A stretch of DNA of 64,000 bases, from contig NW_026925463.1 in the NCBI RefSeq assembly GCF_032062105.1, positions 186,001-250,000 on the forward strand, in the 5' to 3' direction. Below the pieces are notes generated by a model. It was given only the letters and a program-made list of their open reading frames with translations. It did no database searches and was not told where the DNA came from. The position numbers and the translations under genes are program-made. This document shows, piece by piece, positions 23,130 to 63,379 of the stretch. Each line of letters begins with the position of its first letter. The first letter of the stretch is position 1. Source of the DNA: Saccostrea cucullata. Its lineage: Eukaryota.

Positions 23130-23705
23130 AGGAATCATAGAACAATCTGCACTTGAGTGGAAGTCCCTGCTCTATGTCAACTTCCTCGGCTATGAGAGAG
23201 CACGACTGCATGGACCGAGAGACATTGTGGAAGATACTGAGGCACTATGGAGTACCGAGAAGCTCGTCTCCCTTATTCGTAACACCTACCAAGGCACATA
23301 TTCAGGGTTACCCATGCTGGTCAGATGTCTGAAAGTTTCGGGGTCAAGAGAGGAGTTCAGCAAGGATGCTTGCTGTCACTAATTTTTTTTCTCTTGGTCA
23401 TTGACTGGATCACGAAGACCACTGCAGCAGGCAGGAACAATGATATACAGTTGACACTCCTGACGCAACTCGAGTGTGGTGGAGAGAAAGGATGGCGCAG
23501 GCCGTGACATCAAGTCAAAATGTGGCAAGACAAGAACTGCATTTACCATAAAAAGAACATCCACATTACCACCAAACTGCGGATTCTCAACTCTAATGTA
23601 AAGTCCGTCCTATTTCATGTTGCAGAGACGTGGAGACTGTCCAAAGTCAACCTGGAGAAGATGAAGACATTTTACAACACCCTTCTCAGGCGTATCTTCA
23701 AACAT
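23130..23705 (+). mobile_element. RTE-clade LINE RT fragment (degenerate)
   Basis: Translated pieces IIEQSALEWKSLLYVNF, GVQQGCLLSLIFFLLVIDWI and TKLRILNSNVKSVLF..ETW. Confidence 0.8.
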
Positions 23706-28103: not shown

Positions 28104-29116
28104 ATTGGAGGACCTGTCTCCAGAACCACATAGATATTGTCAATCTGAAACTCAAGCATCTTTTCATATCAACTTTAGAATACTTGTGTTTACAACCAAA
28201 ATGTTGTTTTAACAAAATAGTTTTGCAAATGACTTATGACAAGGTAAGTAAACTTCTGAGTTCCATTTTATTACAAAAAAAGCTGACACTGATGTCAAGA
28301 AGCTCGGACTTTTAGTTGTAAGAGAAGTGATTCTTCTAAAGTGATATCTTCTTAAGTCAATATCTTTTTACAATATACTAAAATATTAGGAAATTACTTT
28401 CTGAATAACATAAGAACTAATATGTGATCACTTTCACAAATGAATGGATAAAATAAAAAAAATACACCATATTTGTGATTATGGTTTAAATTAACTACCG
28501 GTATTCATTGCCAAAAATATGTTGTCACACACTTTTTCAAGATGCAAGACATACTAGTAAATAAACAGAGGTACTAAATGTCAGCATAACAATACTGTAC
28601 ATTTTTTGCAAAGAACGATAAAAAATTGTTTGAAACTGGTTCAGTACATTATTCCGATATTGGAATTTACAAAAAAAAATGCTTCTTTCTAAATAAGTTG
28701 GAATTGTGTATATCAGGGAATTTGAAGTATGCCTGAATAAAGATACATGAGTTATTGCCCTCAGCAAAATTTTAAAATATTGAATGATTTATTAAATAAA
28801 GAAAATATATATTTAAAAAAAATCTTTGCTAAACAATCTTTTTATTAGACCTACTGTATTGAAAAGCATTCTTCCAAAAGATAATTTTGCTTTGGTATGT
28901 TTTCAAATTAATAACAGTTTTTTTTTTAAAAACCTATCACATCAAATTGTATTTGGTTTTTCTGTACAAACTCGAATTTCTACACAGAGCTTTGTCATAC
29001 TAACACCAATTAATGGAAAGGTTCGCCTTTAACTATGTTGAGACCAGGTACAATTCCAAGTATTTCTGTATGAACTCGAATTTCTACACAGGGTTTTACC
29101 ACACTAACACCAATTA

Positions 29117-30254
29117 CTAGTTGTGGAGAGGTTCGTCTATAACTATGTTAGGAGCAGGTATAATTCCAGGAGGGTCCTTAGCACTTGTAATAGTTGTCGT
29201 TGTAATTGTGGCCATGCTCGTGTCTTCAGTAGTGGCTTCTTCAATCTGTTGTCAAAGAATTAATTAATGATTTTGAAATAAGATTTACCTATACATTAAA
29301 ATACAGTAAAAAAATAATCAGTTGCCTTGCTAGTTTTCTTTGACAAAAATTGTCAATCTTTTTGTTCGGTATTTACTATAAGTATTTGCAGAAAAAATCC
29401 TTATACAAATTTTATAGCTTTTATATAATTTTATGAGCCGTTTAAAATATTAAAATTTAATTTGTCTTATGTTACATACCCTTACCCCCTTCAAATATGA
29501 AAAAATAGAATGTATATTAAATTATTAAGCCCCAGGAAAGAGAAAGAGGCTCCTTGCTGACTCCCTCAGTGATATGCCTTTACTATACATTATACATCTT
29601 TTTAAATAGGCTCCGTGATCGAAAATAAGTGTGTTCGAATCAAGGAATAACTCATAAAACTGTTGATTAAAAAATTTTGATTAAAAAATTGGTAGAAACA
29701 CTTCTTTCGCCAAGCAAAGCCAAGAAAAGTTATTGGTCTTAGGGATGAGACCTTCGAGGTCCCGTGTCACGGTAGGCGTTGGCTCGATAAAGACACCCCT
29801 CATTGCTCAATGGCCCTGAGTGTCGAGTAAAGGGCTAAATTCGAATCCATTCACGGTGTCTCTATCTGAGTGACAAAAATTCTCGAATAGGACGTAAAAT
29901 AACAAACAACCAATCAATCTTTTCAGATAGATAACAATTTTGTCTTACCTTGAGGTAAAGTTGACAGAATGGAGATTGGGTGTTTGACTTTGTAACACCC
30001 GACTTGGCGAGGAGCTTGCACACTGGGTATTCCTCAGTCTTACATAAAGCCATTGAACGACAAGCACCGACCTCCAAACAACGGGCAGCGCAGGTTATTG
30101 CTGCAGTTTTGCAAGTTTTAGGTAGGGTTAGTTCTTGTAGGATTGATGAATTTTCATACGATAAGAAGGAAATTTTTTGAAACAAATTTTCTTTAAATAT
30201 AGATGCAACTTGTGCTGCTGATAAAATTATCAAGAGCAGCAATCCGAAATGCAT
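29117..30254 (-). CDS. Small secreted PAN/Apple-like protein with Thr-rich tail (144 aa), copy 2, intact
   Basis: Exon 1 (30254-29949) encodes the signal peptide MHFGLLLLIILSAAQVAS and the Cys pattern TCAARCLEVGACRSMALC...VCKL...CQLY. Exon 2 (29245-29117) encodes IEEATTEDTSMATITTTTITSAKDPPGIIPAPNIVIDEPLHN*. The intron is phase-0 GT-AG. The PAN assignment rests on the CxxxC-x4-C-x-S...C-x-L pattern. Confidence 0.75.
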
Positions 30255-33245
30255 TTTTCTTCAACAAATTGGATCTAAATGTGAGATTGGATTCCCTTAT
30301 CGAAAACGCATGATTAACGTCACAGAAATAATATAACAAAGGCGTATTCAGTAAATAATTACTTACTGTCGAGAGTGTGCTTGATTATTTATATATTGTA
30401 CTTGGTTAATCCACCGAAAAGTAGGGATTTCTTTCTCTTTTTCTGGTTCAAGGATGAAAGAAATCATGCTGATGTAAAGTCAACAAACCTTAAAAGAAAT
30501 TGCGTGAATATTCTCTATAACTGGATCAGTAATTATACTGTTGGCACATTTCTGTACGTGTAAAGCTTTGACTGTTTTTATCAACATCCACCCTAAGATG
30601 ATGTATAAATGTAATGTGTCCAAAATAGATGAATTATAACTTTGAACATTTTTTGCGTATGAAACATGATTTAATTCTTTTTTACAGTAACAAATTAACC
30701 TATTTTCTTTTATAATAAATATATTGATTGGGACTGTCTAATCGCGAAAATTTTATTCTAGTATATATTTGTATGATTAAAGGATACAAATTCGAAGTAA
30801 TGAATGAAAATTCATGTCTTCGACGAAGAAAAGAAATAATAAGGATTAAGGTGTTTTAGAAAAACAAATATAATTAATATACATGGACGCAAAATAGAAA
30901 AAGTGAAATCGCTTTCATATGTAATCGAGCATAGTTCTAACCCTATTGAAAAAGACAAAATAACAATCATTGCTATATCTGGAACATTTTTTTTTAATTT
31001 AAATAACAAGACAACTTTTTACCCGATAAATAATATAGAGACATTTTTACTTAGAAAGAAATCGAATGCTGAAGGTTTAATTAGACAAGGTATGTAGACA
31101 ATGTACATGATGCAGCATGTTTTGTATGAAATGAATTGTGTTTAAAAACTAAAATAAAAAGGGGGATAATAAAGTTAAAATGGTGATAATTTGCTTGTTT
31201 AAAAATTGCTTTAATTCTAATTCAAAGTGTTCAGGTAGGCCAATAGAAGGTGACGAAATGAAATGAAGCCTTTTCACCAAAGTTCCTCATTTCTTTTTGG
31301 GTTTTCTTTTTGGGCCTCCCCGTGATACATGTATCCACCCCATCTTCAATTCCACACATAGAAGACCGGTGATTTGCCTACACAATTTAAAGTTGTGATA
31401 TATTTATTGTATATATCGCGTGGACATGTAGAACGAAGCAACGGCAGTGCATTGGTAATTGATAAAACGCCTTGCTCGTTGCTTCTTAATGTCTAGTAGT
31501 TGAAAACCGCGGGATTTTTGGATGACACTTCGAAAAGCGAGGTCCCATGCTAAGACAGATATTGGTATGATAAAGAACCCTCACTGCTTAATGGTCCTGT
31601 TTGCCAATAATGGGCTTTTAAAACTCTAAGTGGAATTATTTTATCAAATGACAGCATTACATTACCAAAAAATGCCATGCAGATAAAACCATGTTTTGGT
31701 TGCATGCCTATCGGGATCTCAAGTTTAAAGATATTGATCAATGTTTTGTTTCAAAAATGGAGGATCTCGGAGCAAGACTAGTTTGTATTTTTTCTCTATT
31801 TTTCCTGATAATTGATCCATAAATATATAGGAGCAGAGAAAATACAATTCTGAATATATGTTCTTATTATTTACTCTCTTTTTATTGAATTACTGCAGGA
31901 GATAGAATCAAATTTTTTAAAACTAATTTTAGATATCTTTTGTTTATGATTTTATATACTTTGGTTTGTAGTAATAGACTAGTGAGTGTTTTACTATCCA
32001 TGTATTAAGTTGTCAAATGTTTGCTGTGTATTCATGTACAAACATGGTGTTAAACAAAATAATTGAAATTAGTCACTATCTGATTGCATGCTCTCTGTTT
32101 GTGTTAACATTTAGCTACTTAGTACTAGTTTTGTAAACAGATTAAAAAAACAGTTACGTTATCTTTTGATTTTTAAAGTGCATGCTCCCAAAGCTGAGTT
32201 TTTACAATGAACATTTTCACGTTCAAAACTATGTGTCACAGAGAATCGTTACAGAACCTTAGAAGTGTCATCTGCTGTAAAACAATGCGGGCATAAATTA
32301 TTCTGAAATACATTTCAATGCTAGCATTATGGTTCAGCAAAAATAAAAGCGATATGGAGTAGAAAAATATATCGTGAATAATAAATATCAAACAGAAATA
32401 TCGAAAGAGAAATCAATATATGATATACTAGAAATAATTATCTATCAATGCATATTTAATGTTCAATATTCAACAACCCATCAGACAGATTCGTAACTTG
32501 AAAAAGTTCATCTTTGTTGAAAGAAATGAAAGTCGAGAAGTAAGTTTTAATGACAAAACCCAGGATGGTGTAGCAGATTACGAATTATTTTTTAATTAAC
32601 TGGCCCCAAGATCATGAAACAAACTTAGACTTAAGTCAAATTTTCTATCACCTATAAAATATTCATTTAATTGAGGAATTTAATTAGAAATTTGCAGATA
32701 ACATCTCTTTTGAGAAGCAATATTGAAAAATATTTTAATTGTGGTCTTCTCGACCTTTACAACATTTTATAATAAGATAAAGATTTTGACTTAAGCTTGA
32801 GATGTTTCATGATCCCGGAACCAGGTCAATGTATCTTAGCCCTGATGTTTAAACTTTGAATTCTCTCTAGGATCAATCCAGACGATGGAACAAATATGAA
32901 GAAGAAGTTGACAAGAATGGACTACTAGTACCAGATGGATGCTGAAATCTCGTGTCAGACTGTTGGGAGGGAATTAGAATACAACCATATCCCCAGTCTT
33001 GAGATAAATTAGAGATCTAACATGACCGATATCAACTGGTCACTGCTGACAAATGCGGTAACAACTTAAGTCTTTGTTTGTATGGTTCGTTTTAGCAACT
33101 AAAGGAACTTGGATTTGAATCTTCAAGTGTTAATGTTATTTATGCTCATAGTAAATTCCTTTTTTTACGGAGGACATTCTTGAAAAAGCAATATGCTACT
33201 ATGTAAATCTCATTGAACTACTAATATTTCATTTCATTAATCAAT

Positions 33246-36200
33246 ATGTTGAATGATCTGCAATTATCATTGCAGTTGAAGGCGTTGCAAATAGGATTGT
33301 GGTGGATAGTTTGTTGTTCTTCAATGGTAAGTATTTGACAAATTGCCTTCTGGTAACTACTCAGCTATTATAAAATTGCAACAAACTATAATGAAAAATT
33401 ACACACGCAAACAATGTATTTACAGTACTCTAGATATTTACACTAATTATCAGGCAACATGCCTGATACAACCAGGCATTGTTAATGAGTAAATACAATG
33501 TGTATTAGGCCGATGGCCAAATATGGTAGCCGATGGCTTGTATGTGTGGTGGGCTGCAGGCCCCCATGTATGTGAGGCCTATGGCCTAGTGACAGTGTAA
33601 GGCCGATGGCCATGAGTGAGTTAGGCCGATGGCCTTGCTTGCATGTAAATGGCCGATGGCCTTGAGACAATGAAATGTGGCCGATGGCCTGTGTGCGTGT
33701 GTAAAAGTGGATCTAACATGGATTTAAAATAAACAAAATTTCTTTTGGGGTTAAATAACACACTTGACCAAGTGTGAAATGCCCAAGCAGTTACCTATGA
33801 TCAGATCAAGGTGGTGGTGGGGAGGAAGGTGGGTCTTTGAGATGTAACACTACAGTTGCAGGAACAAGACAAGATGCTAAGAATCTGATTGGCTTATAGA
33901 ATCACGTGATAACAAGCATGTTGAAATATGATACAATCTACATGATTTTATATAAACAATATTTAATAAATTAAATAACATTTTATATAAAACCAACACA
34001 AATGACATTTACAAATTTATTCAAATTGCCTTCTGGTAACTACTCAGCTATTATAAAATTGCAACAAACTATAATGAAAAATTACACACGCAAACAATGT
34101 ATTTACAGTACTCTAGATATTTACACTAATTATCAGGCAACATGCCTGATACAACCAGGCATTGTTAATGAGTAAATACAATGTGTATTAGGCCGATGGC
34201 CAAATATGGTAGCCGATGGCTTGTATGTGTGGTGGGCTGCAGGCCCCCATGTATGTGAGGCCGATGGCCTAGTGACAGTGTAAGGCCGATGGCCATGAGT
34301 GAGTTAGGCCGATGGCCTTGCTTGCATGTAAATGGCCGATGGCCTTGAGACAATGAAATGTGGCCGATGGCCTGTGTGCGTGTGTAAAAGTGGATCTAAC
34401 ATGGATTTAAAATAAACAAAATTTCTTTTGGGGTTAAATAACACACTTGACCAAGTGTGAAATGCCCAAATGAAGTTATTATAATGTCAATATAATAGCT
34501 GAGAGCCCCAAAAGGAATTATCTAACAACACCACTCTTGATCTGATACCAAAACTTTTAAAACTAATGAAAATAGATACAAAGCAAATCATCTTCTTGAA
34601 TTCCAAATTAACCCGTATTGTGAACATGAGATAAAATAAAATGTAAGTTACATTTGCTTTTAAACTACTGTTCATTGTTTAACAATCCGCTCCAAGTTTT
34701 GAGAAAACAAACCAAATACACAACCTGATGTGAACATAAAATGTTAAATTGCATGCTTAACTGATCTATTATATTTACATACACAACTACACAACACAGT
34801 AGCTAGTCTTTTTACACACCTTTTTGACAACACATTGCCTTTTGTGCACGTGACAAAGTTTGATCATCGGAACGAATGTACCTGGTGTAACAGTCTGAGC
34901 TCCATCTACCTAAGGTTTTGATCAAGTGATCTTCAACTTGTCCACCGGCAGCAGAGGTAGCAGCTCCTATTCTGAAAGAGTGGCCATTGAAATTCTCATC
35001 ATCCAAACCCAGCGATTTGAGTATCTGCTTTAGTTTCGTAATGAAAAATTGTCTTGATAATGGATTTCCAGTTTCATCCGTAAATAAGGCTGAAGACATG
35101 ACACAGTTGTACCACTGTCTACGAAGGGTTAAATATTTTAACATGGATTTCACTGGACACACGGTTTGTTCTGACTGAAATAAACGGATTTGAATTCCTT
35201 TCCGAAAAGGGTCAGTTTTAGATCTTTTAAGCGTGATAGTGTAAGCTTTGTAGTTCCGATCCATGACGACATCTTCCACACACAATAGGTTGTCTTGATT
35301 TATATCGTTCACAGTAAATTCCCCACATCGAAGGAATGCGAAAAATGCTAGAGAACAAGCAGCTTGCAGCATGGTATCTAGGAAATAACCGAACATACCC
35401 CGCTGTAAGACATTTTGAATTTGGATCAAAACACTGTATGTAATGGGCCTCCTTTTCTGTTTAGAACTTTGTTGTTTTTGAATTCCCCTCAACACTGTTC
35501 GCAACCTCGCACACGCTTCATCTGATGATAGAGGATTAGAAATACCAGCCTTCACATAATGGAATCTCACAGCTGCAAGATACAATTTGATGGTATTGTA
35601 TGTTAGTTTTAGGGAATTACAGCAATGAGTAACAAAGTAAATAAGGGTTTGTTCTGAGATCTTAGGTGGATTATAATTAGACGCTTCTATTCCAATCGAT
35701 GAAAGGAACTGGCAATATACTGTAAATCCTGTTCTGTATGCCCTCCTTGTATTGTCGCTTATTGAAGATTCACATAAGTCCCTAGACTCTTTCTCTAATA
35801 CAGGATTAAATCTTTCAAGGATGGTACTGGTACTGGCATTGCAGCTGCTGCTGGAGCTACTTCTCTGAATTTTGTCATCATTTATGCCCCCATATCACAG
35901 TGGCAACAACTATGGGATATAATTCTAACAATGCCATAGATAATGCGTCATCGCCGAGGTCTTAAATTTCTGGAGGCCATTTTCCTTGGAACCATTCTCC
36001 GTAATAGTAACCCCCGTAACCAATGGTAGAAGAAGCATCTGTATACAAGGATATGTCTGAGGCACAAGTCACATTTTCCTCCAGAAAGAACGAATGTCCA
36101 TTCCACTGCTTTAGAAATGTTTCCCACATAGCCAAGTCCATTCTGCATTCTTTAGTTAAATTTACATGATGATGTAATTTAGTAACTGAATGGGCCAGAG

Positions 36201-39200
36201 TTAAAAGATAGGAAATAAATGATCTGCCTGCTGGAATAATTCGTGCAGCGAAATTGAAATGCCCTAATATGCTGAGTAGTTCTCTTTTTGTGCAGGAACG
36301 TTTTGACTTTAAATTGCCAATGAGAAAAAATATGCGCTCTATTTTTTCTGGTGGGATTCGTGCTTCCATTTTAACAGAGTCCAATATAATTCCCAAATAT
36401 TCCATTTCTGTACATGGTCCTTTCGTTTTCTTCTCCGAAATAGGAATTCCTATATTACCAAACACCATTGTCAGTATTGCCATACTTCTGAATCCTTCCT
36501 CCTCTGTAGGATCCAATGTCAAGAAATCATCTAACAAATGTAACACCTGCTTGATTTTTTAGTTATTGGTTAAAATCCAACAGACGGCCTGTGAAAGCAT
36601 ATCAAATATTTTGGGGCTACTTCTGCACCCAAACACTAAGCGTTTATAAAAGTAATATTTGTTTCTCCATTTTATGCCATAAAAGGGTTGCACTGTTTTT
36701 GACAAAGGTAATAGCTTGAATGCGTCCACAATGTCAGTCTTGCACATCAATGAATTAACGCCTAATGATTTCAAAATACTTATGGCATCATCAATACGCA
36801 CATACTGTAACGAGTAATCTTCCTTATCGATGAGGCTATTGATGCTAACTTCTGATGCCGAGTCATGAGGCGATGAGAGGTCTACTATCAATCTGTATTT
36901 CTTTGAGTATTTTCCTTCGGCAACGCCAATAGGGCTAATACGATAGACTTCAAACGGTGGTTCATCATATGGTCCATCTACATAACCTTTGTCAATTTCA
37001 TACTTGAGTAAAGTGTCTACTACTTCAGGTTTCTTCCTAGCTGTACTTAAGTTTTTGCATTCAAATGAAGCCAAAGGCAGCTTAGAAATTCCTGTATCAA
37101 ATCCATTCTCCAATCCATTAATGAAAGTATCTACAAAGTTTTTGTCTGGATGATGGTGCAATTCTGACTTAAATGCTTTGATGTTGATCGTAGTTAAAAT
37201 TTCTTGTTTTTTTTAATCTGACGGTAGGGTAAATTCAGGTAGTCATTGCTTCTCACTTTGGTTGCCCTCATTTTGTTTCGTGGTTGTTTTACATTTGTTG
37301 TGTGGAAGTATGTTTTCCCATCTTACAAGTTGAACAAACATGTAACAAGTTACACGAGGGTCTGTTGCATCCTGCCTCGCTGTTAAAATTGTTACATATT
37401 TCTCTGCCCCTATGCGTGATTCTGGGCCTTCCTTGCACGTCCAGTTGGCTTTGTTGTCCTCTGTTTCTGTTCTGTCCTGGAAGTGAACTATTTGGAACTG
37501 CACTGAATTTTGCTCTTGGGCAGAAATGTGAAGTGTGTGTAGTACTGTTGCAATTCTCACATCTAATTACCGTCTGGCCAGCAAAAATAGTCGTAAACAG
37601 TTTCGTGTCCCTAATTGACCAGTCGACTCTGATATTTCTTTGATGAAGTAGGGCACTGGCTCTCGCTGAAAAGACCTTGTGATAATCGTAAAAAGCAGAA
37701 CCACGTGTCATGGACGCCATCTCCACGATATCACGTTCGTATGCATCCAATTCTATCCTTCTTTCCGGATATACTTCACAAATTATGTTTTTGTATTTTG
37801 AAAATGCCAGTATAAACTCGCTAATGGATAAGTTTCTTTGTAATCTGGCATCAGTATTTTGTTTCAGTAAGATATAACGGCCTTCCGTTTCTTGAATTTT
37901 GTGTTCCTCATTTTCGCGAGGTAGAAGTAAGGCGGCAAGATTGACATCCTTACCTTGGATAATGTTGTTCCTGAGGGTTGTGGACACAGTCTCGACATAC
38001 GGGACCGAATCCGATGGAACACGAGAGCCCGATGGTAAATTAACATGGTCCGGTTCCGATGTCGGTGTACTCTGGTTGGGATTTCGTTGTTGTAAATTGC
38101 TGACAACATTGGTAAGTGACAGAAGAGACTGTTGTATTGTATCAATTGCTTGGCTCAGCGAGTCTATTTTGGTTTCATTTATTGACTTCCGCCCAGCCTC
38201 GTTATGACTTGCTCTCTCCGAAGATGCCGGAAGTTCATGATCGTCTTCGCCATTTTGATTCTCACTAATGTCAATTGTTCTTTCGCCTGTCATCGAACTG
38301 CTAAGCTCTTTACGACTGTCTTGTACATTGTCTTTATAAATTTGAAGTAATTGAGATTTCTTTAAAGTAGCTGGCACTACTATATTTGCGTCTTTCAGTT
38401 TTTGTATTAAGTCTGATGACGACCAATTTTCGGGTATATTAGCGTCCCATCTAGATGTGCTTTGATTTTCACTGCGAGTACGCACATTCCTACCTGGAAT
38501 ATCACTTGTCTTTCTTTTCCTTCCCGTCATTTTAATTTCTATAGTCACAATAATAAGAGCCTCGGGCTAAAGTTCAAGTCATTCGACCATAACATGTAAA
38601 CATTGAAACGAAACAAACACACGTGTATCCTGGGTCGGCAGTCACATACTGTAAATGCATTTACCACTTGTAAATAGTCCACATATTATGAATACACTAC
38701 AAAAAATCCAAGTTGGCTAGGAGAAGAATATATTCCGAAGGAATCTAGAGAAAGTCTTTGAGATGTAACACTACAGTTGCAGGAACAAGACAAGATGCTA
38801 AGAATCTGATTGGCTTATAGAATCACGTGATAACAAGCATGTTGAAATATGATACAATCTACATGATTTTATATAAACAATATTTAATAAATTAAATAAC
38901 ATACTAATAATATCTGATTAACTTTTGAAATTATGGATATGTAGTAGTATTTTATGTGATACATATTCTCAATTTCTTGTTTAAGAGTTCAATTGCAGCC
39001 ATATATTGTCCAGCATCTATTAATACGGTAGTAAATGTAAGAAGATGTCCGAGAACAAGTTTCGAATGGAAAAACGCATCAATTTATAAAAACTGTACAA
39101 GCGAGATACGAAGTTGTGTACGACAAACCGACTTTGTGTACCACTGTGTCATAAATACGTACCTCAACGCCACAGTCGAGGTTTGTGCATCCTCTACAAA

Positions 39201-42200
39201 CATCTTAGGTAAGTTTTTGTTTGGTTTGTGTGTTTGTCTTTGTATAAGGTCTTCTATAGTTGTTTAATACCATTTCATGTATGATCATTAGGGAATACTT
39301 GGGCTGAGTACAACACTAAAGGAGCCAGGATCCAGGGAAATGTTGACGCAGTATGTACGTCCTGTCCTTTCAGATATCCATCTACAGATGCATACAAATG
39401 TACGTAAAACAAATTGTCTTTCAAATTATCTTTAATGTTCTCTTTCAATTTCTTTCTTTTTTTGGACAATCACTTGAATACTATGATTCAATAAAAATCA
39501 AAATAGCTATTTTTTGCCCATTTTTTTTAAGTGAAGTATATTTATCATTGTGTGTTAACATTTGAACATTTTCAGCTTTTTCTCTGCAACCACTCATCCA
39601 ATTTCAACCAAAGCATATACGGATGAAGGGAAATAAAAAATGTGAATATCATGGTCCCTGCCCCCCCTAGGGGCCTGAGGGATGAGGTGAAAACCTCTAA
39701 AATTTATGCAATCTTTAAAAATCTTCTTTACCCCTGGACATCAGATGGACAAACTTTTGGCATGATTGTGATTAGAATTGAGTCCTCTACCAAATTGTGA
39801 CCCAAGGGTCAGGGGTTCTACTGGTAGGGCGGGACTCTATTGATTATATGGTGAAAATGCATTATTTCTTTGAAAAACTTCTTCTCTACTCCTGGGCATT
39901 AAATAACTAACTAAGTACATAGTTATGTTGAATAAGACTGCCTCTTCCAAAATTGGCAAATTCATGGTCCCAGGGTCAGGGGTTCTAGTGCTAGAGTGGG
40001 GCTATATAGATTATGCTGTGACAGTGCAATATTTCTTTGAAAATCTTCCCCCTCCTGCGCATTAAATAAACTCACGAAGTATATAGTTATGCTGAATAAG
40101 GTTCCAAAATTATGAATTTCATTGGGTTCTGGTGTTAGGGCGGGGCTCAGTTGATGATATAGTAAAAATGCATAAATCTTTAAAATCTTCTCCTCTGCTC
40201 CTGGGTTTTAAACCAATGAACTACACGGAACGACTTTCCTTAGAAAAACGCGCTAAAATGCAATATCACCGAAGGCGACCTCAGTATATATGAGATCGTG
40301 CGAGCGATCGAAAAAATTAAAATACGACGTTTTTGGCCTTTTGACCCCCAGGTCGAATTCGACTGTTAAAAGTTAAGTAATTAAGGAGTCAATCCTTACG
40401 TTGCGGGTTCGAATCCCACTGTGGGACGTAGCGATCGGTCCTTCGGATGAGACCTTTGAACCGAGGTCCCGTGTCGCAGTAGGTGCTGGCACGAAAAAGA
40501 TCCCTTACTGCTCAATGGCCCTAAGTGCCGAGTATGGGACAAATTTGTAGCTCTCCACCGGCAAAAGGTGGCGTCTTCATATGAGTGAAAAATTCTAGAG
40601 AGGGACGTTAAACAACATACAATCAATCATGACCTCGTTTGTTGAAAGAAAATTGTTTATTCATTGAAAAAAAACGACAAGAAATAATTGTCAACGAAGC
40701 ATACCGTTAACGAGAAAATTCTAAAAATCAACAAAATTGCTGCATAAATCATATGCACTTTCTCAATCGATAAAATTTTTAAAAACTTAAATTGGACCGT
40801 GGATTTTTACCGTTTCAATTTAAATATGTAAAAATAGTAACTAAACACTTACATACATGTAGTCGACATTTGCGCAGCAACATACATCCTTGGAATATTT
40901 ATACCTTTTTTGGATAGACTTTACTTTACCGGTCTTCAGGCCTGGGGGCCATAACAGTGAGATGAGCTCACTGTCGATCTCAGTCTTACTTTAACCAAAG
41001 AAATATATAATGGAAAAGTGAGACCGAGATCAAAAGTGAGCTCGTTTCACTTTTATGGCCCCTGGGCCAGATCCGCAAGATCCTCGCGCTCAGGCGTCTA
41101 TGACGTAATATTTACGTGACTCAACAAAGAAGGGTTAGTCTTGCATACTTTTTGAGTGATAAGGGTTAGTCTTGTACCCACCTGAGAGATTAGGGTTAGT
41201 CCTTGCACAAGTATTCGACTGATAAGGATTAGTCTCGCATCCATCCGAGAGATTAGGGTTAGTCCTTGCACATTATTTGATTGATTAGTGTTAGTAGAAC
41301 ATCTGCCAGTAAGATTTCGTCTAAACGTCTTAGTCCTTGCATACCATCCGCGAGATTAGGGCTAGTGACCCGTTCTTTTGGATACATTAAGAAATTTAGT
41401 TTCTTCTGTAATTTTTGCAAGGTCATAATCCAGCTTCAACGCCATTTCGTTGGTTTATTTACATGAAATAATGATAGTCCGAAAGAATTGACTCTTAGAA
41501 TACGCCTTATTGACAATTTTATCTTGTCGATTTTTTATGCCCCCGTAAACAAAGTTTCGGGGGTATATAGTTTTTGTCGTGTCCGTCCGTCTGTCTGTCT
41601 CTCTGTTTGTCTGCAAAAGCTTTAACCTTTCTCATAACTTTTAATTTAGTGGAGCTATGACTTTCATATTTCACATATGTATTCCTTGTGACAAGACCTT
41701 TCTTTGGGTACCACCAAATTTGACCTTTTGACATTGACCTTGGACTTTGACCCACTTTTACACAAAAATTCCAAACATTTACTTTGGCCATATCTTTTGA
41801 ACAGTAGATACCAGGACAATTATACTTCACGTATATATTTTTTATGGAAAGACCTTTTATTGGATACCACCAACCTTGACCTTTTGACCTTGGAGATTTC
41901 CGTACTTATGAGAAAACTTTAACCTTGGCCATAACTTTTGAACGGTAAGGGATAGAGCTTTCATACTTCACATATGTAATACTTGTGAGAAGACCCTTCA
42001 TTGGATACCATGAACTTTGACCCTTTGACCTTGACCTTGGAGTTCTACCTACTTTAAAAAAGCAAAGCTTGACAAGAATTTTAAAAGGGTTAGGGCTAGT
42101 GCTTTCATACTTTACATATTTAATGCTTGTGACAAGCCCTTTCATTTGATAGGAAGACCTTTGACCTTATGACCTTGACCTTGGAGTTTGACTTACTTAT

Positions 42201-45200
42201 TAATTTTTTAACCTTGGCCATAACTTCTGAACGTTAAGAACTTGGGCTTCCATACTTTACATACGTAATCCTTGTGATAAGACTTTTCATTAGATACCAA
42301 TTACCTTGACCTTTTGACCTTGACCTTGGAGATTTTCATACTTATGAAAAAACTTAAACCTTGGCCATAACTTTTGAACGCTAAGGGCTAGTGATCTCAT
42401 ACTACACATATGTAATCCTTGTGAAAAGACCCTTCATTGGATACCAATATTTCCAAACTGATGAAAACTTTTTTACCCTGGCCTTATTTTCTATTTCAGA
42501 GCTGTATTTCCAGTGAGTTTGCATTTAAGAAAAGTTAATCTTCGCTAATTTGTTGCCATACGGGGGCATCAGTGTTTCACAAACACATCTTGTTCAATGA
42601 ATAAACAGTATTTTCGTTTCAAAAATTGTAAACTAACTTTTAACCCTAGAATTCGATTTTGTGATCATTTTTTTTTCCATCGATCACGTGAACTCATATA
42701 TGCTGTATTTTGCTGAGGTCCAGTTAAGTAAAGTCGTTCCAAATTTTAAAATATATGGCCCCAAAGTTGAAAAGGTCAAAAGTTCGATCGATCGTATTTT
42801 AATTTTTTTTTTTCGATCGCTCACACGATCTCATATAACTGAAGTAGCCTTCGGCGATAGTACATTTTAGCGCGTTTTTCTGAGGACCGGTAAAGTCGTT
42901 CCAAAGTAAGCATACTAAATGTACAGTTATGATAAGCAATGGTGTCTCTTTTAAATTTGTGAATGTTGTGGCCTCTAGTTTAAAACACAAACCAAATTCA
43001 ATTTTTGGAAAGTTGTTACATGATACTTGGGTGACCTAGAAGGCCCATGGACCTCCTGTTATTAATGAGGTTATTAGCAAGAGTGATTGATTTAATTACA
43101 TGAAGCGCTTTTTTAAATATTGTATAATAAAAATATAATGATAATAATGTAACAGACGTGTATGATGGTGATGTCAGATAAACAACAAGGCTGTTGGGTC
43201 AAGCTGAGTTATAGATTTCTAAAAAATAAGTAAGATTTTCTCTTTATTTTGTAGTTCAGGTTTGGATATGAACAAGACAATCTCTTTATTACGATGGAAT
43301 ACGAAAAAAAAAAACCTATAATGAAATAACAAATCATATTATTTTTCTCATCTATTCCAAGCTCTCTGATTGGCTCAAACTTGATCACATGATAAAGTAT
43401 ATAACAGCATATAGACTTGAGTTATTATTTATAGATTTTGAAAGGCATAGCGACTTAATGCTTACAAAATTTGAAATAATTTTCTGTAAAACAACAATAG
43501 CGTTGAATTCAAAACAGCTAACATTGTGTATGACTTGATTTTTTTTCAAGAGAAAAATTACACTTCAACTCCTATTCATAATTGTGATGTTCTGTTATAA
43601 AAAGTAAAACTTTAAGACTGAAGTCATCAGTCATTTGGATCATGTAAAAAGCACGTGTCATCATTACTTCCGATTGAGACAGTGACTGAGAAACTACAGA
43701 TCAAAAAATATTAAATTAATCTGCTTATTGTGTATTTTCTTTGTACCAATAGAGTAATTTGGGGATTTCAAAAATCAATACAAAACTTAATAAGACAAAT
43801 GTAATCTTTTTGAAAAAGGAAATCCCCAAATTACTCTATCGTCTTGTCAATGTAGATAGTTATAGGAATATCTCAATATCTACAAATCAACAATAAAACC
43901 TTGTAGATATCTAAACTAATCATAAAATAAAGTTTACTTTGAAAATATGAAAAAGTGAGACATAAATGTATTTACTATATTTACACATTACTCAATATCT
44001 ATAATCTCTCTCTCAATATACATTTACTCCAAAAAAGTTATTTATGAAATCAAGTGCATAAATTACAGATATCACATTTAATAAAATTATAATCATATCA
44101 CTCATTAGTTTGAAAGAATTACTTACCATGCAAGTAGAAAGGTAGGTCTAAAAGTCAAACGTCTGATTTATAAAACTGACAAAATTACACTTTTATCACC
44201 TTACACAAACAGGCAAAAATTGACCACAAAAGATAAAAAAAAAGGGAAAAACAAAAACCAATCGAAAAGCATAAGACAACACTAAAAAAAACAAATAAAC
44301 TAAAAGATTCAAAATGACCATGACCAGAATATAATTAGAGCCCTAAGGCTAACTCTGGGCCTCTCTGGAAAAGAATAATTTAAAAAATTAAAACACTTAA
44401 CTACAGGTTCAATGAATAATTATATAATTCAGCTGTAGGAGTGTGCTGCAAATAAAAACATACATAATTAATTTAATGAATAGATGCACATGTAATGTAC
44501 ATTGCTATGCAATGTGCACAATATATAAAAACATGAGTCGGTCACAATAATAATGATAATAATAACTAGAAACTCATTACTAGTAATGAGAAGGTGTTCC
44601 ATTGTACTGCTTCCTGTTGGGAGTCTTTCGCACTTTTTTAGCTGGCACTTCTAGCGGAAATAGTTTGCACGGAAATGTCTTTTCTTACGCCAGTATTAGC
44701 TCATAACTTGTATATAAACAAAATAATACACCTTTTTGCGCTACTTACTGTCTCAATCGGAAGTAATGACGACACATGCTTTTTACATGATCCAAATGAC
44801 TGATGACTAAAAATTCAGTCCTAAAGTTTAGAATTCGGTAGCTTACTGTCGCCAAGCAATTGTGAAAACAGATTCTAATTTTGAAGACAGGGAAACGCGC
44901 GGCCTGAAGTGAATTGTATAAAAATTGTTTCTCTAGAAATTTGTAGTACTTTACAGTACTGTAGATCTTTTCCTTCGTTTTGTGCTTTGTGTAGCATACC
45001 GGGGGTATATCACTCAGAACGAATCTTTCTGCAGACCATTTGACTGGTGATAATTTTGAATGTACGAGGGACGTTCAATAAATAATGTCATCGGTGCTCG
45101 GAAAGAAACAAAAACGCTTAATAATAAAACTAAAATATTCTCTTTTAATTAAAACACATGTCCGTAACATTTTATTCAATTTCTAATTGTTTTTGGAACA

Positions 45201-55414: not shown

Positions 55415-58385
55415 CAAGACGGAACATCCCCTAGCAAAGAGCATAATTATCTAGAAATCAAGGCAGTATTCCCCACAATCTGTCTTTCGAACGATAAAAT
55501 AGGTAGTGAATATTCCTTTCCCAACACTAGTACTTGTATCAAAAGTGAAAACCAAGGGGTTTCGGATGAGACTTTGTAAACCGAGGTCCTATGCCAAGAC
55601 TTATGTTAGTATACTACAGAACCCTCTCTGCTCAGTGACCCTAAGTGCCAAGTGTAGAACTAAATTTGAGGCCATTTATCGAAATTATTTAACTCATTTT
55701 ACCAAGTAATAGTATTACTTCTCAGAAAAAATACATAAACGTGATGACTAACTTTTCAATCGTCAACGTCCCTTACATGATATGCAGCAAAACCTTTATC
55801 AACAGCTCTCAGTTGATTCGATACGAAAGAGCATGCTCTACGTATAAACAATTTCTAAAACGAGTTACTTGTATATTACATGTTTTAAAAACAAGTTAAT
55901 GAAAAAGAGTATCTGCAGTCTCATGTAAAGTCTCCATTTTGTAAGTTTTATGGTCTACACATTGACCTTTTCAGCAAAGACATTTTATCATTGTAAGTCG
56001 ATTGCTGACTGACGTTTTTCATACTACCGTAATTGTTAAACCATAATTTACAAAATGAACTGTCGACGGATTTTTCCAGTATTTCCTGACCATGACGAAG
56101 AGAAAACGACAGGTGTGACTGGTTGGCAGGGAATGCTTACTCCTCCATGGCACCTGATTCCACCTTTGATTTTTTGGACGTCCGTGTTTGCTCTACTCTA
56201 ATTTTGTATTGTTTAATAATTTTTTGATCTCGAATACTAGTAGTTCGTTATCTTCATATAGTTCATACAGATTGAGATAAGACCAAAGTTTTGGCATGCA
56301 TATCGAGTTCTAAAGTACGAAGGATATCGATATCGATCAATGTTTTTTTTTAATGGAGGTACCCAGAGCAAGCATAGTATGTATTTTTCTCTTTTTTCCC
56401 TGATAACTGTTCCATAAATATATAGAATCAGAGAAAATTCAATCTAAATGTTGTTATCATTTAGTAGTAGTTATCATTTTATTGAATCATGTACGTATTA
56501 ATTAGATACAGGAGATAAATCAAATTTTAACTGGTTCTAGATATCTTTTTGTTTATGATTTTATATGCTTCGGTTTGCAGAAACAGCGCTTGTACTTATT
56601 TTGTACAAATTTTTGCTTTGTTTACATGTACATGTATAAACATAGTGTTGAGGAAAAGATTTGACATGATGAATTAAATACCGTGTGTTCACATGCTCTC
56701 TGTTTGTGTTAACATTTAGCTATTTGTTTACAGATCATAAGAAAGTTACGTAATCTTATCTTTTGATTTTTAAAGACCATATGCTACCAAAGCTGAAATT
56801 TTATATTTGAGAGCCATTCTCTGTAATGACTTGAAATTTTATATAGGAGCTGTGGCACGCATAATCTCAAAATTTCTCCAAACTCTATATGATAAAAGTC
56901 TTTGATACCCTTAACTGAAATTAGGCAAAAATTGTTTGCTATGTGTTACAGTTACCATGGCAACATGTCTTAACGTTTAAAAAATTGCATTTTAAACATG
57001 TTTAGAGTCCCATAGTTAGCATTTGCGGCAAGCAAACAATTGGCAATGACTTTTTCAAAAAGTTGAAGGGCTGATATCTTACATACACGATAAACATGTT
57101 TGGTAAACCAACTTTTATATACGTTACTATGGGATCAAAGTATTTATAAGTAAAAAAAAAATCATTCATTGAATTTTATAAAGTCATACACGTAAAAATA
57201 GAAATTTTAAAAAAAAACCAAACAAACAAAAGCAAAATGTGTTTGTAAAATACTGATGCCCCCGTATGGCAAAATAGTGAATATTAAACAATTAAATAAG
57301 TTGGTACCCAAAGTAAAGTCTATCGCAAGAAATACAATTGTGAAATATGAATGCCCTTGCACCACCTGTTCAAAAGTTATTGCCAAAGTTAAAGTTTTTA
57401 AAAAGTGGGTCATACTCCCATGTCAAGGTCAAAGGGTCAAAGTTGTTCGTATCCAATGAAACTTCTTGTCACAAGGATTAAATATGTGAAGTATGAAAGC
57501 TCTAGCCCTAACCCTTAAAAAATTATGGTCAATATTTGTTTTTATAAAGTACATAATATATACAAAGATTGCCATGGTTTAAATTCCACATGGAGCCTTG
57601 AAAGTTACACTCTGTATTTGTCTCCTGCTGTACAGAAACAATGAGGGCATAAATTAATCTCAAATTTAGTCATTTGTTCATTTCAGTGCTTGCATAATAT
57701 TGGTAGTTCGGCAAAATAAAAGCGATATAGAGTGGGAAAAAATATATCATAAATGATAAATATGAAACAGAAATATCGGAGGTGAAATCAATATATAGTA
57801 TACTAGAAATAATTATTTATCAATGCATATTTAATGTTCAATATTCAATGTTGAATTATTGAAAGTTGTGAAGTAAGTTTGAATGACAAACCCAGGATGG
57901 TGCAGTAGATTAAGAATTATTTTCAATTAAAGGGTTAATGTATCTTAGCCCTGCTGTTTAACCTTTGAAATCTCTCTAGAATCATGCCAGACGATTGAAC
58001 AAATAAGAAGAAGATGACAAGAATGGACAAATATTACCAGATAGTTGCTGAAATTTCGTGTTGCACGGTTGGGAGGGAATTTGAATACAACCGATTTTCC
58101 CAGTCTTTTGATTAGTCAAAAATGAGATAAAGTAGAGAAATAATATACTCAACATGAACTGGTCCCTTCTGACAAAGGGGGTAACAACTTAAGTCTTTTT
58201 TTGTGTGGTTAATATTAACAACTATAGGAACTACGACTTGAAAATTCAATTGTCAATCTTACTTATGCTCATAATAAATACCTTTTCTAAGGAGGACAAT
58301 CTTAAAAAGCAATATACATGTACTGTAAGTATTATGTAAATCAAATTGAACAGCTAACATTTCATTTTATTAATCAATATTTTGA

Positions 58386-61300
58386 ATGATCTGTAATTTA
58401 TCATGGCAGTGTAAGACGTTGCAAATAGGATTATGGTGGATAGTTTGTTATTGTTCAATGGTAAGAATTTGCCTCATACTATCTGATAAACTTGTGAAAT
58501 TATGGATGTGTAGATGTACCTGTATTTTATGCATATATTCTCAATTTCTTGTTTTAGAGTTTAATTGCAGCCATATATTGTCCAGCATCTATTAACACAG
58601 TAGTAAATGTAATAAGATGTCCGAGAACAAGTTTGGAATGGAAGTCTGCATCAGTTAATAAAAGCTGTACAAGCGAGATACAAAGTTGTGTAGGCCAAAC
58701 AGACTTTGTATACCATTGTGTCATAAATACATACCTCAACGCCACAGTCGAGGTTTGTGCACCCTCTACAAACATCTTAGGTAAGTTTTTTGTGTAATAT
58801 TTTGTTTGTTTTTGATTGTTTGTTTGTTTGGTCTTTGTATAAGTTGTTTTACACCATTACATGTATTATCATTAGGAAATACTTGTGCTGAGTTCAACAT
58901 GGAAGGAGCCAGGATACAGGGACATGTTGACACAGTATGTACGTCCTGTCCTTTCAGATATCCATCAACAGATGCATACAAATGTACGTAAAAGAATCTG
59001 GGATTATTTTTATGTTCTTTGTTTAAAATATTTTACCGCAATAATTCAGTAAAAATTAAGATAGCTATACTCCGACCCATTTTATTTTTTTTTTAATTTA
59101 AGTGAATTATTTGTACCCTACCTAGATTCCTACCTTCTAAGGTTATAGTGTCGAAAGAGTCCAGCAAATGCTCTACCAAGAAACATTGTTTTTTAATTAA
59201 AAATTTTCATTTTTGTAAAAGAAGAGCTTCAAATTTTTGTGCTTCAATATATATGAGAAGTGGTGAAAGACTTAGAAAACACAAACAAATTATCAAATGT
59301 CATTTACATAAATCACATGACTTGTCTGTATTGAATGCAATCATTCCTTAAAATAAAATAAAAAGTTGTCTTTTTATGATGTCATAGATAACTGTTTCTT
59401 TAATAAAATGGAACTTATCAAATGGCATGATTTTAACTTCAAACAAGTCGTGGTTAGAGCTTCTGCTCGAGAGTCGCGAAGTAATGAGTTGATCTTACGT
59501 CGCGGGTTCGAATCACACTGTGGGACATGGAGACCGGTCCCCCGGATGAGACCGTATAATCCGAGGTCCCGTGTCGCAGTAGATGCTGGCATGAAAAAGA
59601 TCTCTCACTGCTTCAAATGGCCCTAAGTGCCGAGTATAGGTCAAAATTTGTAGCTCTCCACCGGAATATGGTGGGGTCTCCATATGTACGAAAATTTATC
59701 GAGAGTGACGTTAAACAACACACAATCAAACTTACTTTAAAGAAAAGGCACTCTGCTTCTACACAGAAGTACTCTGAAGTTGATATTAAAGGCTTAATGG
59801 AGTTTCTCATTGACATCCTCTTTGTAATCGGTTTTCTCGAGGATACATTCTGATGGGATTCCGATGATGGGATGACAAACAGTGCTCTAATATTCGCAGA
59901 CCTTAATTCATGCAAAGCAGAATTTAATGAACAAAAATTGATGAAGAAAACACTTTCTACTTTGCCTTTTATCAATATATATTTTTGTTTTACTGGCTAC
60001 AGACAATAAGGACCAATTAACAGCTAATTTGTATGACAAACTAAGTGAATACCGATACCCAATTGTCAACTCTCATTACTTATGTTGTAATATTCTTTTG
60101 ATGCTGTAATATTCAATTGCATATTTTTCTTTGAATTGATGTATTTTGATATAATGTATATTAAAACTCAAATGTCACATGTCTATCATTAATACTAGTA
60201 TACACACAAAAGAGTTATAATTGTTTTTCACAAAATAGATTTATAAAAATTAAAAGAAAAATATAAAATAAAATAAAGAATAATTTTCAAGGAGATTTTA
60301 ACTCTCTTTTTTTATTTTCTTTAGTCCAGAGCTGCTACAATTTAATCAAGAGAGTCCAACTTCCAACAACTGCGGAGAAAATACTTTCAACTTTACCATC
60401 CTTACAAAATACAACATTACCATCCTTACAAAATACAACTTTACCATCCTTACAAAATACAACCTTCACAATGAGTCCTGTGTAATGTATTAATAAACTA
60501 AATTTTTCTAAAACTGCATATCTCAGTTCAGAAATATCTATGGCAAGCGCTTTTGCTATTTATTTGGAAAATAAAATTTATCTTAAAATTACAGAGTTAT
60601 CTTTCATTTAAGAGAGATATCTCTTAAAAATAGAGATATCTTCCAAATTAAAGAGATATCTCACTTTTAAGAGATATCTCTTTAAGAAAGAGATATCTCT
60701 TGAACTGAGAGATATCTCTTTTTATTAGAGATATATCTCTTTGACTTGAACTATATTCCTATCTCCTTGAGAGATATCTCTTTCGTGAAAAAGATATCTC
60801 TAAACGTTAAAGAGATATCTCTTTCACCTAGAGAGATATCTCTTTAACTTTTGGAGATATCTTTTCGGGTTAAAGAGATATCTCTTAAAGTAAAAGAGAT
60901 ATTTCTCTTAGTGTATCTTATGAGATATCTCTTAAAGTAATAGAGATATCTTTCAAGAGTGTCTAAAAGAGATATCTCTCAAGCAAAAAGAGATATCTCT
61001 TTATTGCAAAAAGATATCTCTTTTCATTATTTTTATTTAAATTCCATTTAAAATGACTTCTCCCTTTACCGGAAGTAAGCTTTTTATTGACGGATTTACA
61101 TTATAAAAGTATTTTTAGATTCGATATATTCATGATATTCTACATTGTACTTTACTAAAAATCACAAGTAATTCAATTTTGTCTAGATTTCAGATTAGAA
61201 ATTGTTGATTAATTCATAAGCTGAGAAAATTCGGTCCATTGCATTTGAGATTATTTATATTATGCTTATTTTCGTTTTCCTGAATATTAAACTTTTAGCA

Positions 61301-63379
61301 TTTTTATCAAGGAAGTTGCCATTATCATTAATTGTTTCAAATAAGGGATTTATAGCATATTCTTGTCTACACTGTGTCACAGTACATATATTATTCTGGG
61401 TAATTGCTTGCTCAGCCTTTTTCTTATAACATCGAACCTATTAAATAAAGACTTTATTTCCTGTTTCGCTTTCGTTTTAAAGTGGAGAATTAATTATTCT
61501 ATTTTAAGGATAACTGGAAAAGAGATATCTCTTTCATTAAAAAAGATATCTCTTAAGCTTTATATCTTTTTTGAAAATCTAACGAGATATCTCTAACTTA
61601 GAAAGATATCTCTTTTTACCTTGTTAAAGAGATATCTCTATAATTTTAAGAGATATCTCTCTAGCTTATAAAATTATCTCTCTAAGTAAATAAGATATCT
61701 CTCTTACATAAAGAGATCTCTTTTGTTTAAAAGAGATATCTCTCTAAGGTATAAAGATATCTATTTTAGTCAAAGAGATATCTCTATAAGCTAAAGAGAT
61801 ATCTCTCTATGCTAGAGAGATATCTATCTATGCTAGAGAGATATCTCTCTTATTGAAAGATTTTTTTTCACGAATAAAGAGTAAAAGGGCTTGCCATAAA
61901 TATCTATAAAAGTAATGCAAAGATGCACGTTTTCTCGTTTCAGTAAATCGAAGGATAACATTGTTTTTATAACGATCATAGTCGTTGGCATAGTGGTTGT
62001 CATTCCTGCAGTGATTTGTGTTGTGTGTTATTTTGGAAGAAAGAAATGTCAAAGAACCCTTAGAGGTAGGTACTGTGAAATGATTCGTTAGGCCTAAAAA
62101 TTGATATTATCTTCTTTCATTCATTTTATATTTAAGTAAAAAACATTTTAAAAAAGTACATTTGTTATACAAAAGGTTGAAGGATTATAGACAGATTTCA
62201 TTTTTTTTTTTTTTGAATACATGTATTATGATATGAAAAACAGTTTCTAAAGCAGTAAATCAATTACTAGTATCCTGAAGACTCTTTTACAAACCCTTAA
62301 TACTGTGTAGGTACTGTGAAATTATAAGTTTTGATTAAAAATTTATATCTTCTTTCATTCAAATAAAATAATATCAATAATTTTTTATTTCAGTAGAAAG
62401 CATTTTTTTAAATTATATTTGTCATACAAAAGGTTGAATGATAATAGACAATTTTCCTTTTTTTTAAATATTTCTTAATTTAATAATTCTTAATTTAATA
62501 ATTTTTTAAAGATGGATTATGATACGGAAAACAGTTTCTATAGCAGTAAATCAATTACAGTATCCCGAACCCTTAACATGCTTAATACTATGTACCTTGT
62601 CTGTGTGGATTCGTTAGGCATCTCTAAGATCGTTTTCTAAGCGTTTAAGACGGTTTGAATATTTTAAGTCTTTGTTTGATCTTTGAATTTATTCGAAATT
62701 CATTTCTAGATCAAGAAGGCAGGTCAAGTGCATTAAGTCCATTAAAATCTGAGGAAAAAATTACCGGTAAGAAAAAATTCAAAATTCTCATTGAATATTA
62801 AAAGGGTGTACTGTAATAAATTCAAAAGATGTATATCTTACAGGAAAAAACTAATTTACTAAGCAACATAACGACAATTCCTCGGAATATACTAGTATAT
62901 TAAAAAAATTAAGTATTTGCTTCAAATACTCTCTATATGAAGATGTTATAATAATCATGATAATACTAATCATTGAATTTGCCTAGCTTATACAAATGAT
63001 ATTCTTTTAATGAGCCATTGTTTGTTTTAAATTATTTTAAATAAAACTGTAAGCATCAAAAGTAAGGTTTATCAATTTTTTCCTCCGTTTCGATTAAAAA
63101 TGCACTGGGGAAGAAGACACAAACAGAAAGTTTACGGTTGCTCTTGAGATAGGACAACACTTTTCTGGATACGGTTATTCTTCGAAACATGATAAAACAC
63201 CAAGAATTCCAGTAGATAGTTCAGGCAAGGCAAAGAAAATCCCGTCTGCGGTCTGGTATAGCAAGACAAAGGAAAAAATAAAGATAGGATATGATGCCCT
63301 AGATGAATACATTAATTGTGATGGAAATCCTCCAGAAGACATATATTACTCTGGTGATCTGGTTATTGATTACAATCAG
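58386..63379 (+). CDS. Single-pass Cys-rich membrane receptor, copy 2, with putative cytoplasmic HSPA12/HSP70-like exon (continues beyond window)
   Basis: Exons: 58386-58460 (signal), 58558-58780, 58876-58983, 60325-60481 (stalk), 61944-62065 (TM IVFITIIVVGIVVVIPAVICVVCYFGRKK), 62710-62766, and ~63101-63379 (FTVALEIGQHFSGYGYS...KIPSAVWY...IGYDALDEY, ending CAG|GTGAG). The first six exons splice in phase. The acceptor of the last exon is uncertain. Confidence 0.7.
59447..59731 (+). mobile_element. Full-length tRNA-derived Deu-type SINE
   Basis: A box TGGTTAGAG, B box GGTTCGAATC, central GGATGAGACC...GAGGTCCCGTGTC and tail GACGTTAAACAACACACAATCAAAC. Truncated copies occur in each PAN-gene intron (~25340-25560, 29700-29920, 50580-50825) and at ~31500 and ~55550. 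Confidence 0.8.
60390..60463 (+). repeat. Coding 24-bp tandem repeat x3 (TLPSLQNT) in receptor stalk
   Basis: TTACCATCCTTACAAAATACAAC is repeated three times here; the paralogous exon at 48577-48685 has a single unit. Confidence 0.85.
60539..61898. mobile_element. Foldback-like DNA transposon, TATGGCAAG termini, 6-bp TSD AATATC, AGAGATATCTCT arrays
   Basis: TATGGCAAGC...GCTTGCCATA with AATATC on both flanks and dozens of palindromic AGAGATATCTCT motifs at both ends. Confidence 0.85.

Follow-up and report, generated by a model that had tools for sequence, protein, structure and literature searches.

In a 64,000-nucleotide stretch of the genome of the oyster Saccostrea cucullata (RefSeq assembly GCF_032062105.1, contig NW_026925463.1, positions 186,001 to 250,000 of the forward strand; hereafter the window, numbered from its first letter), a small gene for a predicted secreted, PAN/Apple-like protein stands head to head with a gene for a cysteine-rich type I membrane protein, and this pair is present twice. 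The reading that we favor, with a probability of roughly 0.72, is a tandem duplication of two neighbors with a breakpoint in intron 4 of the receptor gene, separate promoters for the two genes, and uneven decay of the copies. The first-pass annotation of this DNA had considered a co-regulated ligand/receptor module; judging from sequence, such a module is unsupported, not refuted, no positive support having been found, and the PAN-like protein and the receptor are probably not a ligand-receptor pair.

Collinearity of the two units

The start codons at 30254 (minus strand) and 33246 (plus strand) in the left pair and at 51160 (minus) and 58386 (plus) in the right pair, as well as their divergent orientation, are as the first-pass annotation had placed them, and each opens a plausible first coding exon with a GT donor. 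By comparing the window with itself, we found that unit A (about 28.7 to 48.7 kb) is collinear with unit B (49.5 to 60.5 kb) over the PAN-like gene, blocks of the spacer, and receptor exons 1 to 4 (E values of the blocks, 1e-9 to 0). The PAN body at 29063-30716 matches 49984-51626 with 80.5% identity, receptor exons 2 and 3 (38904-39412) match 58473-58996 with 85.8% identity, and exon 4 (48417-48677) matches 60158-60473, all collinear on the plus strand; the spacer contributes three further collinear blocks (31681-32204 and 56275-56803, 32266-32599 and 57619-57930, and 32824-33337 and 57933-58471). The synonymous divergence (dS) amounts to 0.178 between the receptor copies R1 and R2 (110 codons) and 0.188 between the PAN-like copies PAN2 and PAN3 that face them (142 codons), and these near-equal values are consistent with a single duplication event. 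Since both pairs would then come from one duplication, their head-to-head orientation counts as one event, with a chance of about 1 in 4 for random neighbors.

At the junction between the units (48686-49552), the receptor homology stops at exon 4, which would place the breakpoint in intron 4, so that the membrane anchor of R1 was either never copied or later lost. There is also a duplicated unit that holds only the PAN-like gene (21999-26270 against 26283-30626), without any receptor sequence. We propose that a segment of some 20 kb (roughly 28.4-48.7 kb, copied as 49.5-60.5 kb) was duplicated in tandem, carrying along two neighboring, unrelated, divergent genes, and that the right breakpoint in receptor intron 4 would have left the left copy, R1, without a membrane anchor at birth, unless the anchor was lost later. 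The PAN-like gene would have been copied once more by itself, and the copies would have decayed unevenly, PAN1 by a nonsense mutation, PAN3 by a frameshift, and R1 by cysteine loss and a retrotransposon insertion. The more modest possibility named in the first-pass annotation, that the co-duplication merely reflects proximity, is supported.

It is extremely unlikely that the assembler merely placed two haplotypes in tandem. Two facts would suit such an artefact: the contig, at 259,238 bp, is short, and the RefSeq model LOC134268913 (P0001) extends across both receptor copies, apparently a chimera in which R1 exon 2 is joined to R2 exons 3 and 4. Against it speak the dS of about 0.18, the many indels, the unit-specific insertions, and the PAN array of three copies. 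The usual divergence between oyster alleles is smaller than that between units A and B. Receptor exon 2 matches three S. cucullata RefSeq proteins among seven candidates, and the public annotation misdescribes the receptor genes at this locus.

Uneven state of the copies

PAN1 (24832-25894, minus strand; exons 25894-25589 and 24960-24832) has no adjoining receptor, a TAA nonsense triplet at codon 26, and an altered TATA-like box (26036), and it is probably a pseudogene; its dS to PAN2 is 0.098. PAN2 (29117-30254, minus strand; exons 30254-29949 and 29245-29117) is intact, and its product of 144 amino acids, with a hydrophobic N terminus, a PAN-like cysteine core, and a threonine-rich tail, is predicted to be secreted. 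PAN3 (50038-51160, minus strand; exons 51160-50857 and 50166-50038) carries a +1 frameshift near codon 89, caused by one extra base in an A-run, which leads to a 101-amino-acid product without the last cysteine and the tail. Downstream of PAN1 and PAN2 (24545-24883 and 28956-29168), but not of PAN3, the 3' end of the PAN-like gene with its untranslated region (about 105 bp) recurs locally in two to three copies.

The PAN/Apple label of the first-pass annotation stands only in part. Cysteines 55, 59, 65, 71, and 79 are kept in the three copies and satisfy a C-x3-C plus downstream cysteine pair pattern, which we take to be that of PAN/Apple domains, and PAN_4 (PF14295) is the sole Pfam match for all three (E values of 0.006 to 0.06; 0.06 for PAN2). 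On the other side, the score stays under the curated cut-off in every copy (13.8 to 17 bits versus 27). Among homologues at near length, with longer forms outside the search, five candidates appeared and none reached an E value of 0.001; PDB sequences gave no match to the PAN-like proteins, and the three-copy profile gave one at an E value of 1.2. From the residues alone, the name "PAN-like" seems fair, while membership of the PAN/Apple family is not demonstrated.

R1 (33246-48685, plus strand; exons 33246-33326, 38986-39208, 39292-39399, and 48577-48685) is a truncated copy, not the receptor that the first-pass annotation had described. No transmembrane exon was found in 48686-50040, up to PAN3 (best hydropathy, 1.62), and blastn and tblastn locate a single transmembrane exon, a single exon 6, and a single last exon in the window, all on the R2 side. 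R1 also has a tryptophan where all of the aligned relatives (149/149) have a cysteine. Its frame is open and meets a stop immediately on reading through the exon-4 donor, so a soluble ectodomain is a possible product.

R2 exons 1 to 6 (58386-62766, plus strand: 58386-58460, 58558-58780, 58876-58983, 60325-60481, 61944-62065 with the transmembrane segment, and 62710-62766) form an open frame of 247 amino acids, comprising a signal-like N terminus, a 10-cysteine ectodomain, a serine/threonine-rich repeat stalk, a transmembrane helix at about residues 195 to 218 (peak hydropathy, 3.3), and a juxtamembrane tail. R2 keeps all ten conserved cysteines together with the YHC and EVC motifs of the family, one of these cysteines being absent from R1. 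The R2 stalk owes extra length and additional N-glycosylation sequons to a 24-bp coding repeat at 60388-60463 (plus strand, 3.2 copies), of which R1 has a single copy.

As assembled, neither of the two units (0/2) has both facing partners intact, and the intact genes are PAN2 in unit A and R2 in unit B. Of the duplicated cassette that had been described, the co-duplication is borne out by the collinear blocks and the dS values, whereas the integrity of the units is not, because R1 lacks the transmembrane exon and an invariant cysteine and PAN3 is frameshifted. The PAN-like gene was also copied without a receptor, in the PAN1 unit.

Spacers and candidate promoters

Spacer A (30255-33245) measures 2991 nucleotides from ATG to ATG and spacer B (51161-58385) 7225 nucleotides, and about 1.9 kb in collinear blocks is common to both, which agrees with the homologous intergenic DNA noticed in the first pass. 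The enlargement of the second spacer by transposable element insertions was confirmed as well: nested non-autonomous inverted-repeat elements (52182-55414, enclosing 52982-54774) make up much of the length gain, and a satellite-like insert lies at about 56804-57618.

On the PAN side, a TATA-like box at 30388-30395 (minus strand), conserved in PAN3 (51293, minus strand), may serve as a promoter element of PAN2, and a CAGT about 27 nucleotides downstream of it could be an initiator or a splice donor. The receptor-side TATA-like motifs nearest the PAN-like gene are at 31824 (plus strand) in spacer A and 56419 (plus strand) in spacer B, that is, 1429 nucleotides (copy A) and 5126 nucleotides (copy B) from the PAN-side motifs, these being motif matches only. 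In spacer A, a conserved GTAAG donor at 32540 with an acceptor near 32871 suggests putative non-coding receptor exons. The middle spacer blocks diverge by 0.11 to 0.16, and introns or synonymous sites by 0.15 to 0.19; since the former is not clearly below the latter, there is no sign of extra constraint. Most likely, the PAN-like and receptor genes would each be driven by their own candidate promoter.

The two genes might be co-regulated neighbors whose products do not bind, with common enhancers or a common chromatin domain, as in stress or immune induction. This seems unlikely: the divergent orientation and the middle spacer blocks kept in both units would suit it, whereas a spacer divergence no lower than that of introns and synonymous sites argues against extra constraint, and spacer B tolerates inserts of more than 4 kb.

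Less likely again is that the PAN-like protein is a ligand or co-receptor of the receptor under common regulatory DNA, an arrangement that would leave intact PAN2, intact R2, and R1 as a soluble decoy. It would suit the head-to-head order and the spacer retained in both units, and it fits the equal age of the two gene pairs by dS, the predicted entry of both products into the secretory path by hydropathy, and an R1 frame that stays open until the immediate stop after exon 4, with a ratio of nonsynonymous to synonymous divergence (dN/dS) of 0.41 for R1/R2. However, the two pairs count as a single duplication event and the PAN-like gene was also duplicated alone, each unit as assembled has a damaged partner, and R1 is without an invariant cysteine. 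Furthermore, a distance of at least 1.4 kb (copy A) or 5.1 kb (copy B) separates the candidate promoters, and the PAN side has a TATA-like box, whereas divergently paired genes are by definition less than 1 kb apart and are TATA-poor (PMC2670823). Finally, no fused PAN-like segment was found in 150 receptor relatives (best E value, 0.09; no PAN family by Pfam).

A large mollusc family with interchangeable tails

The receptor is one of a large family of single-pass mollusc proteins whose genes duplicate rapidly; the ectodomain, held by disulfide bonds, is conserved across the family, and the tails are interchangeable. With the 110-residue ectodomain, we found 904 relatives at an E value of 0.001 or less and 441 at 1e-10 among 50%-identity representatives; the statistics on domains, helices, and tails refer to the best 150 of the 904. 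A membrane helix is present in 108 of the 150, the median tail is about 42 amino acids, and the ectodomain falls under no Pfam family in any of them. The Atlas clusters for one relative are molluscan and without names, and two long Atlas clusters with nSTAND3, one of which also has ankyrins, have the ectodomain fold at TM 0.52 to 0.55. We infer that these proteins act as receptors.

The ectodomain model built from 141 sequences is confident (predicted local distance difference test [pLDDT] of 88 to 98 for the block of residues 11 to 120). Nevertheless, PDB sequences gave a best E value of 0.24; a wide fold comparison with VIA, testing mainly residues 1 to 70, gave 5 of 48,161 chains at a Z score of at least 2 and none at 5 or more (best, 2.6); and Foldseek gave no match at an E value of 0.001 or less in PDB (best, 3.5) or BFVD (best, 1.0). 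A missing structural match does not prove a new ectodomain fold. Among the family members, P0020 has a cytoplasmic-side BIR domain (E value, 3e-14), and weak OTU-like cytoplasmic tails are seen in relatives among P0016, P0018, and P0019 (E value of 0.008, below cut-off).

An Hsp70-like tail in a subfamily

Tails of at least 90 amino acids occur in 22 of the 150 relatives, and their largest similarity group consists of eight Hsp70-like tails (8/150), in which a degenerate module resembling the HSPA12/Hsp70 nucleotide-binding domain (NBD) lies C-terminal to the membrane helix. These eight relatives are 24 to 52% identical to one another, and such low identity argues against a one-off gene-model fusion. 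The Hsp70 likeness emerged only via profiles and folds: P0013 alone had no match among PDB sequences, and Pfam HSP70 reached a best E value of only 0.086 for the tails. A profile of the eight tails, built with the window exon described below included, ranked DnaK and BiP NBDs first in PDB (E values of 0.002 to 0.017 for the top 17 rows), and the P0013 tail was grouped by Atlas with HSPA12B-like clusters (0.93). The low-confidence model of this tail gave 83 Foldseek matches at an E value of 0.001 or less, with DnaK leading (6.8e-5), and the same model aligned with BiP in VIA over 178 residues (Z score, 9.7; root mean square deviation, 4.7). P0013 is thus predicted to have an actin-like NBD fold.

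In the window, an exon at 63101-63379 (plus strand) resembles the start of an HSPA12/Hsp70 NBD. It is 100% identical to LOC134268914 (among 39 candidates), which continues beyond the window and which RefSeq models as a gene of its own (P0151), so that the Hsp70-like part is split from the receptor. The exon alone matched no Pfam family and had no useful PDB match. A profile made without the window exon found LOC134268914 at an E value of 7.7e-6 and placed the frame at 63098 at the top of 669 open reading frames in the window, and none of 1000 shuffles reached the score of this frame. P0151 covers profile positions 3 to 122 of 407, the later motifs are missing, and the remainder lies past the window end; the domain seems to be incomplete at this locus.

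The splice link from exon 6 to 63101-63379 is weak, as open acceptors in the right phase contain only 4 pyrimidines out of 14, compared with 8 to 13 of 14 at eight accepted acceptors, and using the AG at 62843 as acceptor leads to a stop after three codons. The R2 protein, when expressed, may end in a short tail, and its own Hsp70-like tail may be decaying. R2 and most of the relatives have a divergent first-strand phosphate-binding motif, and what we take to be the canonical phosphate-binding residues are mostly replaced in the tails. From this divergence, the HSPA12-like tail is likeliest a non-catalytic scaffold. When 149 relatives are ordered by the identity of their ectodomains to that of R2, five of the eight Hsp70-tailed ones are among the first 11, and in the proposed history R2 would have descended from a subfamily with an HSPA12-like tail.

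Putting these results together, we give somewhat less than an even chance to the following picture: a large oyster single-pass, 10-cysteine family of unsolved fold, in which an old subfamily would signal through an HSPA12-derived, probably catalytically dead cytoplasmic NBD, with R2 as a possibly decaying member and R1 perhaps as a soluble decoy. The further step of making the PAN-like protein a ligand of this receptor is highly improbable.

Several observations weigh against our reading of the locus and of the tail. The lesion of PAN3, a single base in a homopolymer, may stem from the assembly; if so, unit B would hold an intact head-to-head pair. About 1.9 kb of spacer has been kept in both units. 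The dN/dS ratio, suggested as an indicator in the first pass, proved to be below 1 in all pairs, which points to some constraint on the copies after duplication; it is significant for R1/R2 (P of 0.04) and not for the PAN pairs (0.54 to 0.57; P of 0.07 to 0.11). The intron divergence of PAN1/PAN2 (0.167) is not lower than that of PAN2/PAN3 (0.151), which blurs the order in which the duplications took place. As for the tail, the P0013 model has a pLDDT of only 50.8, and the ectodomain tree joins R1 and R2 first, with weak support, to 13 sequences without an Hsp70-like tail and does not place R2 with support within the Hsp70-tailed clade.

Mobile elements and other genes in the window

Intron 1 of R1 holds a near-complete DIRS/Ngaro-type tyrosine-recombinase retrotransposon (33339-38902, minus strand; the Ngaro label is presumptive) with gag-like, reverse transcriptase, and tyrosine recombinase frames, the reverse transcriptase frame having a stop at about 36560 and a break near 35960. 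Its split direct repeats (33339-33786 and 34022-34469, 1 of 448 positions different; 33833-33981 and 38754-38902, 0 of 149) are 99.8 to 100% identical, which indicates a recent insertion. In intron 3 of R1, heavily degraded frames at about 44900-48350 (minus strand) resemble what we take to be a long terminal repeat retrotransposon pol. Degraded reverse transcriptase fragments of a long interspersed nuclear element (23020-23706 and 27060-27980, plus strand; RVT_1 E value of 1.4e-9 at 27159-27530) were copied along with the PAN1/PAN2 unit.

Elsewhere, a Tc1/mariner transposase (14089-15150, plus strand) has one in-frame stop between HTH and DDE and inverted repeats at about 13242-13936 and 15220-15298. 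A trimethylguanosine synthase-like gene (1665-6427, plus strand; Pfam Methyltransf_15, 1.6e-22) contains a 117-bp coding repeat at 3078-3423, a profilin-like open reading frame occupies a single exon (17146-17577, plus strand; Pfam E value, 2.2e-24), and the exons of a small gene (10333-11143, minus strand) have a weak SAM-domain match (E value, 0.2). Rfam gave no match over the window.

Relation to known systems

The co-duplicated pair itself looks like ordinary birth-and-death duplication, from which there is little to learn. The receptor family matters more: it has hundreds of members, no Pfam entry, and no structural neighbor found, and its swapped cytoplasmic modules (Hsp70-like, BIR, nSTAND3-ankyrin) would be in keeping with a class of surface receptors in molluscs that has gone unrecognised. 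If the picture of the tail is true, this would be a receptor with an Hsp70 pseudo-ATPase as effector; should the fusion be expressed, some of the HSPA12 expansion in oysters would have been recruited to membrane signaling and missed by Pfam-based Hsp70 surveys. A literature search, with most subscription papers outside it, found no description of the ectodomain family, the Hsp70-tailed receptor, or the oyster PAN/receptor pair, and the novelty of the receptor architecture is provisional.

The PAN-like copies share with PAN/Apple proteins secretion and a short cysteine core, C-x3-C followed by spaced cysteines, but they score below the cut-off and have no PDB sequence match. PAN domains usually sit in proteases or multidomain lectins; the oyster copies stand alone with a threonine-rich tail. 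Like divergently paired genes with bidirectional promoters, the oyster genes are adjacent and point outward from opposite strands. Such pairs are defined by start sites less than 1 kb apart and are TATA-poor, mostly TATA-less housekeeping genes (PMC2670823), whereas the candidate elements of the oyster genes are separated by at least 1.4 kb in copy A and 5.1 kb in copy B.

In Magallana (M.) gigas, HSPa12 accounts for 89 of 113 Hsp70 genes and has grown by tandem duplication, and signal peptides among oyster Hsp70s are reported only for HSPa5, 13, and 17, as far as the accessible parts of PMC11268181 go; the word "transmembrane" does not occur in that text, nor "membrane" in three supplement files. 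Other reports state that some HSPa12 proteins carry divergent NBDs of unknown nucleotide binding (PMC10939072) and give HSPA12A/B as cytoplasmic (PMC13149161), and four membrane-related terms do not occur in PMC8917759. The tails of the relatives resemble the Hsp70 NBD, as in bivalve HSPA12, by profile, language-model features, and fold; they differ in standing after a signal peptide, an ectodomain, and a transmembrane helix and in being too divergent for Pfam HSP70. Finally, TNF-receptor and EGF-like ectodomains are absent from the Pfam, PDB-sequence, and fold matches listed for the ectodomain, residues past 70 being barely tested in VIA; what the R2 family has in common with these and other cysteine-rich receptors is type I topology, a disulfide-rich ectodomain, and variable cytoplasmic effectors.

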